Source of the DNA: a virus
Taxonomy: Duplodnaviria > Caudoviricetes
IMG/VR virus record: IMGVR_UViG_3300025316_001101
DNA length: 64,000 nucleotides
Strand: one strand, 5' to 3'
The notes below the pieces were generated by a model, which searched no databases, was not told the DNA's origin, and was given only the letters and a program-made list of their open reading frames with translations. Positions 41,763 through 54,532 of this stretch are shown here, in pieces. Within the stretch, counting starts at the first letter, position 1. Every line of letters begins with the position of its first letter. The position numbers were made by a program, and so were the translations under genes.

Positions 41763-41997
41763 AAAGTCCTCGGCCGACAAGAAGCGTAGAGACGCCATTC
41801 CCTTTCGGGAAGTTATAGCCTTCACGCACGGACCCTTTCAGGTTACCGCCGTTCGAAACGCAATTAGATCTCCCCTTCGAGAGATCACCGGATTCAGTCG
41901 AAACTTACCGGCTTGTGCTGTCGCTTGCAGGTCGCCCTGTTTTGCTACCTTAGGACCATCATTGATGTAGTCCCCACTACATTCGGCCGAGGACTTT
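41763..41997 (-). ncRNA. structured ncRNA A with 23S rRNA H69-H71-like segments
   Basis: 15-bp terminal stem AAAGTCCTCGGCCGA/TCGGCCGAGGACTTT, then TTATT; several internal hairpins; GGTCCTAAGGTAGC; TTGCAA-N16-TATATT promoter upstream. Confidence 0.7.
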
Positions 41998-48288: not shown

Positions 48289-48362
48289 TAGGTCACGTGG
48301 GAATCGAACCCACATTTACACTTTTAGAGAGTGTTGCTCTGAGCCAATTGAACTAGTGACCC
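48289..48362 (-). tRNA. amber suppressor tRNA (anticodon CTA)
   Basis: ACACT-CTCTAAA-AGTGT, intact D/T arms, G1.U72, A73. Confidence 0.88.
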
Positions 48363-50212: not shown

Positions 50213-50340
50213 GTGAATTACCCCGCCCCTAAAGAGGGCGGGGCTTCCGTTCCAATCAGCAGCCCACTCAAAGCGGGTCTTATGCCAAGACAAACGGCTC
50301 TCCCTGTATTCCAACAGGGGTTTATACCTTCATGTGAATA
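50213..50340 (-). ncRNA. putative TnpB omega/reRNA scaffold
   Basis: structured 3' region from tnpB end to the TCAC boundary; 5' end unknown. Confidence 0.6.
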
Positions 50341-51461
50341 TTAGTTGCTGCGTTTTCATCCCTATCGTGATTAGTGAAGCAGTTCCAACAAGTCCAAGTC
50401 CTATCAGTAAGTTCCAAGTCCTTGTTCTGCCAACCACATACGGAGCATAATTGCGAACTTGGATACCATTTATCCACTTGTCGCAACTCACGACCATACC
50501 ACTCGGCTTTGTATTTTAACTTTTGGAAGAACGAGGAGAAGCAAGCATCGGCTTGCTTCCTGTGATACACCTTCTCCCTCCATCGCTCAATTTTACGAAC
50601 CTCTGGGTCTGCGTTCCTCAACATATCACTTACACAAAGAGTTTCAACGACAATGACTTGGTTCTCGTCAATTATTTTTCTACTTACTTTGTGTTGAAAA
50701 TCCTCACGAATGTTGTGAATGTGCTGCTCCAACTTGTTTAATTTAAGGTATGCTTTCGCTCTACCTTTGCTGTCTTTCTGTGTTCTATTCTTTGCTTTCG
50801 TCAAGAACTTCAATCTGTTTCTATATTTTGTTTTTGGTAGTGGGTTCTCATACTTTGTTCCATCGCTGCCCACTATTCCATGAACATTCATGTCCAATCC
50901 AATAGTCTTATCAGTAGTTGGAAGTGGAGTCATTACCTTGTTGGCTGTAATGCTCACGAAGTATTGTCCTGCTTTATTCTTGGAAATGGTGGCAAACTCA
51001 ATCTCGCCTTCAAGTGGTCGGTGGAGGATGATGGGGATGCCTTGCTTGAACTTAGGAATGCTCAACTTACCATCAATGACTTTGATATTCTGTAATACCT
51101 TGAATGATTGTTTGCCGTGTTTTTTCTTGAAACGAGGGAAGCCACATTTACCTTTATGTTTGCCTTGTGCTTTTAATTTAACCTTACGGAAGAAGTTGTC
51201 ATATCCATTTTGTAGTGCTTTGGCTGAGTATTGTAATGCTTGACTTCCTGCTTCCTTCAACCAGTCGTATGTTTTCTTTAACTCTGGGATAGATGTAGCA
51301 TTGTCATAGTAGTTCAATGATTTGTTCTCACCTTTATAAGCATTGATGCGTTGTTCAAGGAAATGGTTATACAAAAACCTCACACAACCAAAATGTTTGG
51401 CGAGTAGAACTTGTTGTTCCTCGGTGGGCATCAACCTATATTTGTAAGAAATTAAGGTCAT
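50322..51461 (-). CDS. tnpB: RNA-guided endonuclease TnpB
   Basis: YKYRLMPT..FG..RF.YN HTH, RuvC GLD / VVE / DRD, C4 Zn finger. Confidence 0.93.
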   Translation of the reverse strand: MTLISYKYRLMPTEEQQVLLAKHFGCVRFLYNHFLEQRINAYKGENKSLNYYDNATSIPELKKTYDWLKEAGSQALQYSAKALQNGYDNFFRKVKLKAQGKHKGKCGFPRFKKKHGKQSFKVLQNIKVIDGKLSIPKFKQGIPIILHRPLEGEIEFATISKNKAGQYFVSITANKVMTPLPTTDKTIGLDMNVHGIVGSDGTKYENPLPKTKYRNRLKFLTKAKNRTQKDSKGRAKAYLKLNKLEQHIHNIREDFQHKVSRKIIDENQVIVVETLCVSDMLRNADPEVRKIERWREKVYHRKQADACFSSFFQKLKYKAEWYGRELRQVDKWYPSSQLCSVCGWQNKDLELTDRTWTCWNCFTNHDRDENAATNIHMKV

Positions 51462-51637
51462 TTTGCTCCTGCGGGCATTAATGTTTTGTTCGTTTGATTT
51501 TCAACCCAATCGTGTATTAACAGTCGTATCGCTTCGCTCATATTGAGGTAATTACCATCGCACTTATCCTTGAACTTCTTGAATAATGTCGGATGGACAC
51601 GAATAGTCAAACTATGTTCAGCATTTTCTTTTGTCAT
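51458..51637 (-). CDS. ribbon-helix-helix protein (not in ORF track)
   Basis: 59 aa: LTIRVHPTLFKKFK..C..NMSEAIRLLI; stop overlaps tnpB ATG. Confidence 0.75.
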   Translation of the reverse strand: MTKENAEHSLTIRVHPTLFKKFKDKCDGNYLNMSEAIRLLIHDWVENQTNKTLMPAGAK

Positions 51638-51911
51638 ACACTTTATATAGTGTTGCCTTACAATTTTTTCACAACAAAATCAAAATTATTTTTTCAAGCC
51701 GTTTTCAATGGCTTTTATGCCGTTTTAGAGGGGAAGGCATTAGACCAAAGTTATTCAGCGTATGTCTAACTAAATTACATTATGACGCCTTACATCCCGC
51801 TACCCTAAAGAGGTTTGCCCTGTTCATTCGGTCGCTCGCTGACGCTCGCTTCCTCACTCACAGAGCAAACATTCCTTCGGAATGTAGGGGTTTTACGGCG
51901 TCCCAGATAAA

Positions 51912-52212
51912 TTTCGGCCCGACAAGGATGAATGCATGATGTTTTCTCAGGCTCTACCGGCATCGACCAGTGTGTTGTTACACCAAAGGGCGACTATCCG
52001 ATGTGGTCGGCTTCCCAGCATCATCCTCATTCTAGAAATGAGGGAGAGGCTGCACACCCACTCTTTGAATGATGGCTACTTCTAGGCCAACATCCTGGTT
52101 GTCTTAGCCTTTTGCAAAGCCCTTACTTCCCACTAAAACACCAAACAACTGCAAACGCAGATGAGACGAACTTCACTTCTGTTATGTAGTCCCACTCGCA
52201 TTCGAGCCGAAA
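51912..52212 (-). ncRNA. structured ncRNA B containing a 23S rRNA GTPase-associated-centre (H42-H44) mimic
   Basis: terminal stem TTTCGGCTCGA/TCGGGCCGAAA; ACCAGGATGTTGGCCTAGAAGTAGCCATCATTCAAAGAGT-[76 nt]-GTGTAACAACACACTGGT. Confidence 0.8.
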
Positions 52213-52213
52213 G

Positions 52214-52284
52214 TGGAGCCACGGGGAATCGAACCCCGACTTCAGCCTTGCAAAGGCTGCACACTCCCGTTATGTTATGGCCCC
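52214..52284 (-). tRNA. tRNA-Ala(TGC)
   Basis: G3.U70, CAGCC-TTTGCAA-GGCTG. Confidence 0.92.
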
Positions 52285-52796
52285 AATTTTATTGCATCCA
52301 TTGCATCGTGTGCTTCTCCATGACAATTTCTGCACAGCAAATCGCACTTGTCTAATTCCTTTTTTACTCGTTCAAAATTCCACTGCTTCACCCAATTGCT
52401 GTTAAATTTAACATCCTTCTCGCCAGGATCTCTATGATGAAAATCCAATGACCTCAACGATTTATTGTATCCACAGACTTGACACTTGCCACCCTTATAA
52501 TCTACCGCACGCTGTTTGTGTTTCCTAAATCTTGCCACACTGCGTCTTGAATGACACCTTTTACATAACACATGCGATAATCTTCCATCTCCTACACTGA
52601 CAAACTTACTCTTCTTTGTTTCTCCACAATCCTCACACAAATACCCGTATTTTTTGTTACCTACATGTTTATTGGTTTTAATGCCATGTTTTTTCAACCA
52701 ATGTTTTATAGTGCTTTGACTTTTGCCACATTCACTGGCTATTTCACGCTGGCTTAAATTACGATCTATGCAGTTTTGTAAAAATGTTTTATCCAT
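52275..52796 (-). CDS. HNH homing endonuclease with N-terminal HTH
   Basis: GGKCQVCGY..LDFHH.DP..K..KCDLLCRNCH.E.H. Confidence 0.85.
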   Translation of the reverse strand: MDKTFLQNCIDRNLSQREIASECGKSQSTIKHWLKKHGIKTNKHVGNKKYGYLCEDCGETKKSKFVSVGDGRLSHVLCKRCHSRRSVARFRKHKQRAVDYKGGKCQVCGYNKSLRSLDFHHRDPGEKDVKFNSNWVKQWNFERVKKELDKCDLLCRNCHGEAHDAMDAIKLGP

Positions 52797-52861
52797 GACA
52801 TTATATAGTGTCATGGCTCATTTTTTACAAATTATTTTATCCCAAATGAGCTAAGGCCCCA

Positions 52862-53719: not shown

Positions 53720-54532
53720 TTATTTATCCTCTTCCGTCGTTTTTGATTCCGACGTTGTTCCCTCTCGCATTGCAGTATACATGGCTGCTTCACCACGCAA
53801 CATACTAGTACGAGCCCGAATATCATCCGAATCAGCAGAAAAACCCATCACAGATGAACAAGCCATCAATTTCGATTCATACATGTCGAATGCTTCGGCT
53901 CCACCTGCCGCATAAGTTACACCCTGAAGTGTAATAGCGGTTTCACAGAACTCATTAAGCAACATTCGCTTGCCTCCGCCACGCTCGGCAAGCTCACCCC
54001 AAAAGGCATTTTCAGAAATTTTGTGTTCGCCGCCTAAACATTGAAGAGAATAAACATTTACGCCCATTTCCTTCAACGCCCCAACTTCAACCCGCCAATC
54101 CAGGTTTTCAGTATTTTCACAATAATTAGGTTCATGCGGAACATCGTCACCGATCATAACCAGCACTCGACCAGTTTTCGCACCATCCGTCCAACCCAAA
54201 TTGCGGGCCACATGCAGTGCCAATTCATAGCACTCAGGGGCATCACCACCACTTGTATTTGGAGCATTGCGAATAAAATCAAAGATTGCTGCACGATTAT
54301 CTGTTAGAGACAACGAAACAATCTTGTTTTCTCCATCGCAATAATCGCCGTGGGCAATCAATCCGATCTTCAAGCCCGGAATGTCTTGAAGCATTGCTTC
54401 ACAAGTTTCTTCCAAGTGTTTTCGCACATCGGCAATTGCTGGACGCATACTCCCAGTGGTATCGAAACAAAATGCCACTTCTGTAGCATTACCAACACGA
54501 TCCGCTACTCTGTCTTTCTTTTCTTCACTCAT
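53720..54532 (-). CDS. vWA domain protein
   Basis: FDTTGSM MIDAS, GGD.PE, IGDD.PH. Confidence 0.88.
   Translation of the reverse strand: MSEEKKDRVADRVGNATEVAFCFDTTGSMRPAIADVRKHLEETCEAMLQDIPGLKIGLIAHGDYCDGENKIVSLSLTDNRAAIFDFIRNAPNTSGGDAPECYELALHVARNLGWTDGAKTGRVLVMIGDDVPHEPNYCENTENLDWRVEVGALKEMGVNVYSLQCLGGEHKISENAFWGELAERGGGKRMLLNEFCETAITLQGVTYAAGGAEAFDMYESKLMACSSVMGFSADSDDIRARTSMLRGEAAMYTAMREGTTSESKTTEEDK

Follow-up and report, generated by a model that had tools for sequence, protein, structure and literature searches.

What is a close copy of a functional domain of 23S rRNA doing among the tRNA genes of a giant phage? The question arises from the stretch of DNA analyzed here (the window, 64,000 nucleotides), which is the terminal 64 kb of the 259-kb IMG/VR record IMGVR_UViG_3300025316_001101, a record that we estimate to hold about half of the genome of a giant phage from freshwater and lake metagenomes. 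On the minus strand of the window, positions 51,912 to 52,212 hold a putative non-coding RNA (ncRNA) of 301 nt, part of which a preliminary description, made from the letters alone, had taken for a mimic of the GTPase-associated centre (GAC) of 23S rRNA. In the ribosome, uL11 and uL10-(bL12)n bind to the stalk base, on which translational GTPases also dock. The comparisons described below place this RNA in a family of phage RNAs that is very large and, apparently, undescribed, and whose members, to judge by sequence, probably imitate the stalk-base site off the ribosome.

Results

Match of the core to the 23S GTPase-associated centre

When aligned to the real E. coli 23S sequence (L005), the core of the RNA is identical to nucleotides 1051-1108 at 48 of 58 positions, in two parts separated by a 76-nt insert that lies between 1090 and 1091 (Table 1). 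The ten differences are G to A at 1051, U to C at 1065, C to U at 1072, U to C at 1083, A to G at 1089, A to U at 1090, C to U at 1092, U to C at 1097, G to A at 1099 and U to A at 1101; A1067 (52083) and A1095 (51979) are retained. The core therefore carries the base triple in its U1072/U1092-A1099 form, a known alternative of this triple in rRNA. Comparison with E. coli 23S by blastn gave two matches, collinear and in sense: 1039-1088 at 90% identity (E 1e-14) and 1093-1111 at 84%. No other 23S-like segment was found in the 259-kb record, nor any Rfam large-subunit (LSU) rRNA match.

The likeness extends beyond the 58-nt domain. Identical to E. coli are also the bases of kink-turn 42 (Kt-42; for its anatomy see PMC1919483), namely AAGGC (1039-1043), AGACA (1046-1050) and CGA (1109-1111), and the whole is closed by an outer stem in which GGGCU (52122-52118) would pair with AGCCU (51953-51949). 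With these flanks and this stem the module corresponds to approximately 1028-1125, and the presence of the Kt-42 flanks suggests that the whole L10/L11 site has been copied. L10, in fact, binds 23S nucleotides 1029-1125, where helix 42 and the loops of the junction are what it recognizes, and full in vitro binding of L10/L12 is obtained with a 95-nt fragment comprising H42-H44 (PMC1635324), while the GAC folds autonomously and L11 binding requires, and recognizes, that fold (PMC6239185). In its predicted structure, the module keeps both the fold recognized by L11 and the helix 42 and junction loops recognized by L10.

The preliminary description had proposed a 58-nt domain with this number of matches and this point of splitting, the two retained adenines, and Kt-42-like AGAC..CGA flanks, all of which were borne out by the alignment to the real E. 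coli sequence, with the flanks lying at 52111-52100 and 51965-51957. The extent it had given, 51963-52103, holds for the core plus three to four flanking bases; the unit itself is larger, as the module spans 52122-51949 and is part of the 301-nt RNA.

Relatives in viral contigs

Family counts were drawn from the pattern matches listed in viral contigs, and the totals are lower bounds. A pattern for the H43 region matched 37 viral-contig loci, just one of which is a true 23S gene; two looser patterns matched at least 119 viral loci each; and a kink-turn-specific pattern matched 14 viral loci and yielded six additional relatives, all in phage contigs of 117-527 kb. Distinct relatives in viral contigs number well over 150. 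The matches listed yielded 120 canonical members, each unique, and about 80 more in which the H43 loop is a variant. In bacterial contigs and metagenome-assembled genomes, the 86 pattern matches resolved into 19 true members, from many phyla, and 67 chance matches. The sole matches in cultured phages were pieces of host 23S; one candidate of this kind, Paenibacillus phage Pd_22F (L237, MZ092003.1, ~83.4-84.1 kb), was rejected as a member, being unannotated ordinary 23S that represents host DNA or an assembly artefact at the genome end. Rfam 15 contains no family that matches the window region, L002, eight relatives or the second RNA described below, and full-text literature searches found no published description of such a family of GAC-like phage RNAs.

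Members have in common several derived features that are absent from rRNA: a U1090-A1101 pair, an insert at one and the same site, a basal helix in that insert, and a UUUG linker. The window shows every family feature, that is, the H43/H44 core, U1090-A1101, the insert with its basal helix and UUU(R) linker, a closing helix of its own, and the sense of the tRNA array. Three small viral contigs (L018, L034, L037) carry an unsplit, contiguous 58-nt-like domain between AGACA..CUCACUAGUCU flanks and without the insert.

The family keeps close company with tRNA genes. A tRNA lies within 3 kb of 87 of the 120 members, and 87/87 of these have the closest one on their own strand, that of the rRNA sense; 52/120 are no more than 50 nt from a tRNA, and tRNAs are often found on both sides of the element. 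A search within ±3 kb of the 120 loci revealed no conserved protein partner, the top cluster being HNH-type endonucleases, present at 7 loci.

Covariation and fold

Because the search patterns fix positions 1085, 1087-1089, 1091, 1093, 1095, 1100 and 1102-1104, these are uninformative. Elsewhere, the 120 members vary in the way expected of the GAC fold. The closing pair 1051:1108 is paired in 92% of members, with four Watson-Crick types, and 1058:1080 in 99%, again with four types; 1054:1105 is G-C in 72 and A-U in 44, 1064:1074 is C-G in 109 and A-U in 9, and 1092:1099 is C-G in 90 and U-A in 27. Tertiary contacts covary as well: the pair 1082:1086 is U:A in 81 members, C:G in 22 and A:U in 11, and nucleotide 1072 tracks 1092-1099, being C with C-G in 89 and U with U-A in 25. 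U1060 (present in 118/120), A1077 and A1098 are near-invariant, and position 1061, which is also variable in rRNA (PMC6239185), varies freely in the family.

The helices were further examined in a MAFFT alignment of 17 short-insert members against the specified GAC structure. Paired cells amounted to 93.9%, compared to 72.6% after shuffling (0/500 shuffles reached the observed value) and to 34-52% with slid partners. Changes on both sides were seen at 15/23 pairs, and the two tertiary pairs behave in this manner too. RNAalifold independently recovered H42, H43 and the basal helix of the insert.

Judged from these patterns of substitution, the element is a structured RNA under selection, and one that keeps the three-dimensional logic of the GAC. 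That the ten changes are compensatory, that tertiary contacts covary and that selection acts on the three-dimensional fold, so that this is not a decaying scrap of rRNA, had all been argued from a single sequence in the preliminary description; the same ten differences were found here, and the argument now extends across a large family of viral homologs that conserve the fold, with covariation in helices and in tertiary contacts (1082:1086, and 1072 with 1092-1099), and with the sense of the neighboring tRNA genes.

The insert within H44

Across the family the insert ranges from 19 nt to more than 350 nt, always at the same site, with a basal helix that is short and of variable sequence. This helix averages 3.3 bp, compared to 1.5 in shuffled sequences, and the linker before G1091 reads UUUG in 88/119 members, its last base being A in 12/119. 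Being a family-wide arm whose basal helix covaries and whose linker is conserved, the insert is unlikely to be an excised element.

No motif resembling the sarcin-ricin loop (SRL) was found in the window insert, and none in a structured context in the 259-kb record. SRL-like hairpins do occur inside the GAC insert of three relatives (L059, L161 and L210, with inserts of at least 310 nt); in L210, 17/19 bases match 23S 2651-2669, and these three RNAs unite both halves of the factor-binding site, the GAC and the SRL. A further module, CACCCCGUAACUGGUAAGG, recurs in about 13 of the 107 non-redundant inserts (L032, L147, L156, L157, L194, L217, L240 and others), and GGUAAG is present in 35, compared to about 4 expected; the window is only weakly similar to this module (CUGGGAAGCC).

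The whole RNA, its frame and Ro60

The RNA starts 1-2 nt past the discriminator base of tRNA-Ala(UGC), and its 3' end coincides exactly with a metagenome repeat boundary at 51911. Its minimum-free-energy fold keeps the terminal helix (z = -2.3). At the two ends are motifs like those of Y RNAs, and GNCGAAN0-1G is the motif that has been proposed for recognition by Ro60, a protein that Y RNAs tether to effector proteins (PMC4201824; bioRxiv 10.1101/312249). We scanned the whole record for such a frame, requiring CGAA(N)G, then CUUG(U/A)C no more than 520 nt further on, and flanks able to form 9 or more complementary pairs. Four sites were found: the 301-nt RNA, a second RNA of 235 nt (RNA A), and two units of ~70 nt that closely follow a 569-aa ORF. 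This ORF (L324:661-2370) is a Ro60 orthologue, with 64.3 bits to vWA_Ro60 and 28.2 bits to TROVE. The Ro60 locus lies outside the window, at G000:C1:127091-130058, where, after the Ro60 gene, come a tRNA-like gene whose anticodon arm bears a 61-nt insert and then three Y-like units, of which the one that is not among the scan matches sits between the other two. The terminal helices of the five framed RNAs differ in sequence and yet all pair; such a shared frame, with helices that differ and remain complementary, suggests that in this phage a Y-RNA-like chassis carries the GAC module as cargo. GNCGAAN0-1G is matched exactly by RNA A and unit Y2. The frame is a candidate Y-type frame, assigned on motif, helix and genomic association, and the 301-nt RNA itself has no Rfam Y-RNA match.

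RNA A is preceded by a promoter-like TTGACA..TATTAT and followed by a U-run. In its interior, four segments match the H69-H71 region of 23S (1921-1976), their order being permuted; the strongest of them agrees at 17/18 bases (E 0.002), and shuffled sequences average 0.14 such matches.

The frame motifs themselves have counterparts in 23S rRNA. The 3' frame motif UCCUUGUCGGG (51912-51927) is identical to E. coli 23S 1940-1950, and CGAAUGG (52195-52204 in the frame) is also found nearby in 23S, at ~1968-1976. The Ro60-binding frame may itself be similar to the H70-H71 region, a likeness that could be due to chance.

Genomic neighborhood

The record carries 48 tRNAs and a tmRNA (G000:C1:84822-85173, tag ANTFAVAA), and its PHROG matches include tail-fibre families. 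Scanning of the minus strand near the ncRNA for promoter or terminator consensus sequences found none, which would agree with its release from a polycistronic transcript of tRNAs. No L10, L11, L12 or RtcB gene was found in the 259-kb record, about half of the genome. On 52059-52104, three RNA runs (4-9% of words) gave only rRNA of other organisms, continuing into contiguous 23S, and the same runs gave low-depth copies of a repeat at 51767-51911. In the best DNA run, this 145-nt repeat stands at about ten times phage depth, occurs in variants and has a sharp edge at 51911, which points to a mobile repeat present in many genomes.

The repeat lies at one end of an IS605-type element (50322-51911, minus strand) that abuts the 3' end of the ncRNA and encodes, after a 59-aa ORF, a 379-aa TnpB ORF that has OrfB_IS605 and Cas12f1-like TNB domains. 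On the other side, an ORF resembling helix-turn-helix (HTH) plus HNH-type endonucleases (52275-52814, minus strand) overlaps the start of tRNA-Ala; 7 family members have similar ORFs nearby. At 1.5 kb upstream (53720-54532, minus strand) is the gene of a 270-aa protein with a VWA domain. The array also includes, at 48289-48362 on the minus strand, a tRNA with anticodon CUA (tRNA-Pyl according to ARAGORN), of the amber-suppressor type, and TAG may be recoded in late genes.

Table 1. Features of the 301-nt RNA, of its surroundings and of the other framed RNAs. Positions are those of the window unless preceded by G000:C1.
Feature	Position	Strand	Description and basis
Whole ncRNA, 301 nt	51912..52212	-	11-bp terminal helix, 52212-52202 with 51922-51912
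Y-type frame, 5' part (putative)	52184..52212	-	Terminal-helix strand, CGAAUG motif, GUGGGACUACAU element
Y-type frame, 3' part (putative)	51912..51927	-	CCUUGUCGG motif and terminal-helix strand
Stalk-base module	51949..52122	-	Corresponds to 23S H42-H44 (~E. coli 1028-1125); fold, E. coli alignment, blastn
Kink-turn 42-like 5' strand, AAGGCUAAGACA	52100..52111	-	1039-1050; 10/12 bases match E. coli
58-nt domain, 5' half, 40 nt	52060..52099	-	E. coli 1051-1090; H42 top strand, H43 with A1067 loop, 1082-1086 junction, H44 5' strand
76-nt insert in H44	51984..52059	-	Between 1090 and 1091
Insert basal helix	GGGUG 52059-52055 with CGCCC 51992-51988	-	Fold, family covariation
Insert hairpin A	52052-52016	-	
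Insert hairpin B	52010-51998	-	
Insert linker, UUUG	51987-51984	-	
58-nt domain, 3' half, 18 nt	51966..51983	-	1091-1108; H44 loop with A1095, H44 and H42 3' strands
Kink-turn 42-like 3' strand, CGAUGCCGG	51957..51965	-	1109-1116, one additional U
tRNA-Ala(UGC)	52213..52284	-	ARAGORN and Rfam tRNA, 63.9 bits; 3' end abuts ncRNA 5' end
RNA A, 235 nt	41763-41997	-	Same Y-type frame, 15-bp terminal helix
Y-like unit, ~70 nt	G000:C1:129090-129158		
Y-like unit, ~70 nt	G000:C1:129429-129501		
Y-like unit, ~70 nt	G000:C1:129988-130058		

Discussion

We consider it about an even bet (a probability of roughly 0.5) that the locus encodes a stable ncRNA of approximately 301 nt, whose body is a self-folding copy of the stalk base that binds stalk proteins, and whose Y stem links it to Ro60. 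From its features we infer transcription, processing, protein binding and biological role as follows. The RNA would be made within the long tRNA-array transcript of the phage and probably released by the tRNA-processing enzymes cutting at tRNA-Ala. Its body would fold by itself into 23S H42 with kink-turn 42, H43 and H44, the extra arm branching from H44. Once in the GAC fold, the module might bind host uL11 and, in the kink-turn-bearing subclass of the family, uL10-bL12 as well, and the resulting stalk-base particle could act off the ribosome as a decoy or adapter for whatever recognizes the site. Here the Y stem would serve to attach the particle to Ro60, just as Y RNAs tether Ro60 to effectors; Ro60 is a partner that the mechanism of the preliminary description, likewise a decoy or sponge, did not include. 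On the protein side, there is a precedent for phages that manipulate the stalk, as phage-encoded bL12 domains are common (PMC6375957).

A number of observations weigh against this interpretation, some concerning the rRNA-like module and others the frame. The position of A1067 varies within the family, being A in 96, G in 20 and U in 4 of 120 members, and adjacent loop bases vary too; a loop so relaxed fits recognition of the fold, or by L11, better than recognition by factors, GTPase docking or thiostrepton-type recognition. The H44 hairpin is not continuous, being interrupted after 1090 by the 76-nt arm, and the kink-turn has one extra U on its non-bulged strand, before the strand that pairs with GGC. 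Plain energy folding favors a pairing of CAAAG with CUUUG that would destroy the junction. We rejected this AAAG/CUUU alternative helix: position 1086 covaries with 1082 and not with the linker, which makes the GAC-type junction the better model. No RNA run was listed for the 191-nt core of this phage, a result that tells nothing either way on expression.

As to the frame, the Rfam scores behind it are subthreshold, though specific, and belong to the short units (29 bits, E 0.005, for YrlB and 25 bits, E 0.02, for YrlA, against thresholds of 69 and 97); the 5' motif of the 301-nt RNA, GCUCGAAUG, differs from GNCGAAN0-1G in having one additional base; and the 301-nt RNA is 77 kb away from the Ro60 gene. 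Only 1/120 family members has the Y frame, and the Ro60 vWA domain was found in 0/10 other carrier records, three of which are 99-100% complete. Ro60 therefore cannot explain the general function of the family, and we rejected it as a general family partner.

Among the other explanations, the one that survives best is a decoy for a factor that is not a ribosomal protein, such as a host defence nuclease or toxin that attacks the stalk base or docks on it, or else the translational GTPases or RelA, for which the RNA would be a sponge that takes them off the ribosome, with the GAC displayed alone or together with the SRL. The SRL-like hairpins in the inserts of L059, L161 and L210 favor it, the GAC plus the SRL making up the full factor-binding site, as does RNA A, whose H69-H71-like pieces fit the display of several rRNA target sites; the 48 tRNAs and the tmRNA are also what would be expected of phages that replace damaged parts of the translation machinery. 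We nevertheless hold such a decoy to be possible rather than likely, because the window insert has no SRL-like motif and the 259-kb record none in a structured context, and because the A1067 loop, which contacts the factors, is the least conserved part of the family core. Moreover, the GAC is not known to us as the target of any defence toxin.

Two other proposals involve Ro60 in this phage, and we regard both as doubtful. According to the first, the RNA would assemble uL11 and uL10-(bL12)n into a pseudo-stalk off the ribosome and capture stalk-dependent factors (translational GTPases, RelA, or defence nucleases that dock on the stalk), and the Y chassis, being modular, would here display 23S sites on Ro60 in a programmable way, the GAC through the 301-nt RNA and the H69-H71 pieces through RNA A, for counter-defence or host takeover. 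According to the second, the RNA would be an adapter for Ro60-centred RNA quality control, in which the module guides or gates Ro60 and a host exonuclease toward or away from 23S rRNA or its fragments. The Y-type frame shared with the Ro60-adjacent units would suit such an adapter, and so would the existence of two framed RNAs with different 23S-like cargo, given that Y RNAs specialize Ro60/PNPase for the decay of structured RNA (PMC4201824). The GAC family, however, is overwhelmingly without Y frame and without Ro60, which argues for a Ro-independent function of the module, and a copy in sense is unable to base-pair with rRNA.

The remaining explanations are very improbable. A host 23S fragment, captured by recombination or through a homing endonuclease and now decaying without function, might be suspected from the HNH endonuclease-like ORF (52814-52275) and the TnpB element that adjoin the RNA, and from the fact that phage records can carry pieces of host 23S. 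Nonetheless, U1090-A1101, the site of the insert and the UUUG linker are common to hundreds of phage elements, all the changes are compensatory, the family covaries, and the record has no other 23S segment, so that this explanation is close to refuted already. It is similarly hard to credit that the two halves are rRNA exons around a small intron, whose splicing would restore a contiguous 58-nt domain: group I splice sites would agree with the U that ends the 5' part and the G that ends the insert, and inserts of relatives can exceed 300 nt, but inserts of 19-45 nt are too short for a ribozyme, 12/119 members have A as the last base, neither the window nor eight members gave an Rfam intron match, and a covarying basal helix with a conserved linker is typical of a built-in arm. 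Least likely of all is a cis-acting autoregulatory leader of a ribosomal-protein gene like that of rplJ, since, textbook precedent for mRNA leaders that mimic an rRNA site notwithstanding, the record has no L10, L11 or L12 gene, no neighboring protein is conserved across the 120 loci, and the element sits among tRNAs, often with a tRNA on either side.

The preferred reading, a stalk-base copy in a Y-type frame, can also be set against known RNAs. With the bacterial 23S GAC (H42-H44, including the 58-nt uL11/thiostrepton domain 1051-1108) the phage RNA shares not only the 48/58 bases, the helices and the AGACA/CGA bases of Kt-42, but also A1067, A1095 and the tertiary signatures U1060/A1088, A1077, 1082:1086 and the 1072 triple in its U/U-A form. 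It differs in being free-standing, framed by unrelated sequence and not part of an rRNA gene, as well as in the 76-nt arm and UUUG linker after 1090, U1090-A1101 in place of A-U, and the extra U of the kink-turn. Y RNAs (YrlA/YrlB, RF02553/RF02565) resemble it in that their ends pair, the phage RNA having CGAAUG close to its 5' end and CUUGUCG close to its 3' end, in the presence of a Ro60 gene with short Y-like units in the same genome, and in having a variable effector module that mimics a translation RNA. Unlike theirs, this module is rRNA-like and not tRNA-like; at 301 nt the RNA is longer than the ~70-130 nt of Y RNAs, the likeness is below the Rfam thresholds, Ro60 is distant in the genome, and the cargo follows a closed hairpin instead of lying inside stem 2.

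The leaders of ribosomal-protein genes, for instance the rplJ leader that binds L10-L12, are likewise RNAs that copy, off the ribosome, the site of a ribosomal protein on rRNA. Such leaders, however, act in cis within the mRNA of the protein they bind and are loosely similar to the site, whereas the phage RNA stands alone in a tRNA array, is near-identical to the rRNA site and comes without a ribosomal-protein gene. GOLLD and ROOL (PMC12286853) are phage-borne, tRNA-associated and highly structured as well, although they have no sequence or structural relation to the RNA described here, form RNA-only multimers and copy no rRNA domain.

If these RNAs do bind stalk proteins or factors, they would represent a widespread and overlooked way for phages to act on the translation machinery at the RNA level, for which the previously known phage examples were proteins and tRNAs only, namely phage bS21, phage bL12 and tRNA arrays. 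Among stand-alone RNA genes, the element would also be the first to copy a functional domain of rRNA. For the study of RNA structure, the family provides hundreds of naturally occurring sequence variants of a tertiary fold that is among the best studied, and, in this particular phage, the RNA would link the biology of Ro60 and Y RNAs to the factor-binding site of the ribosome.

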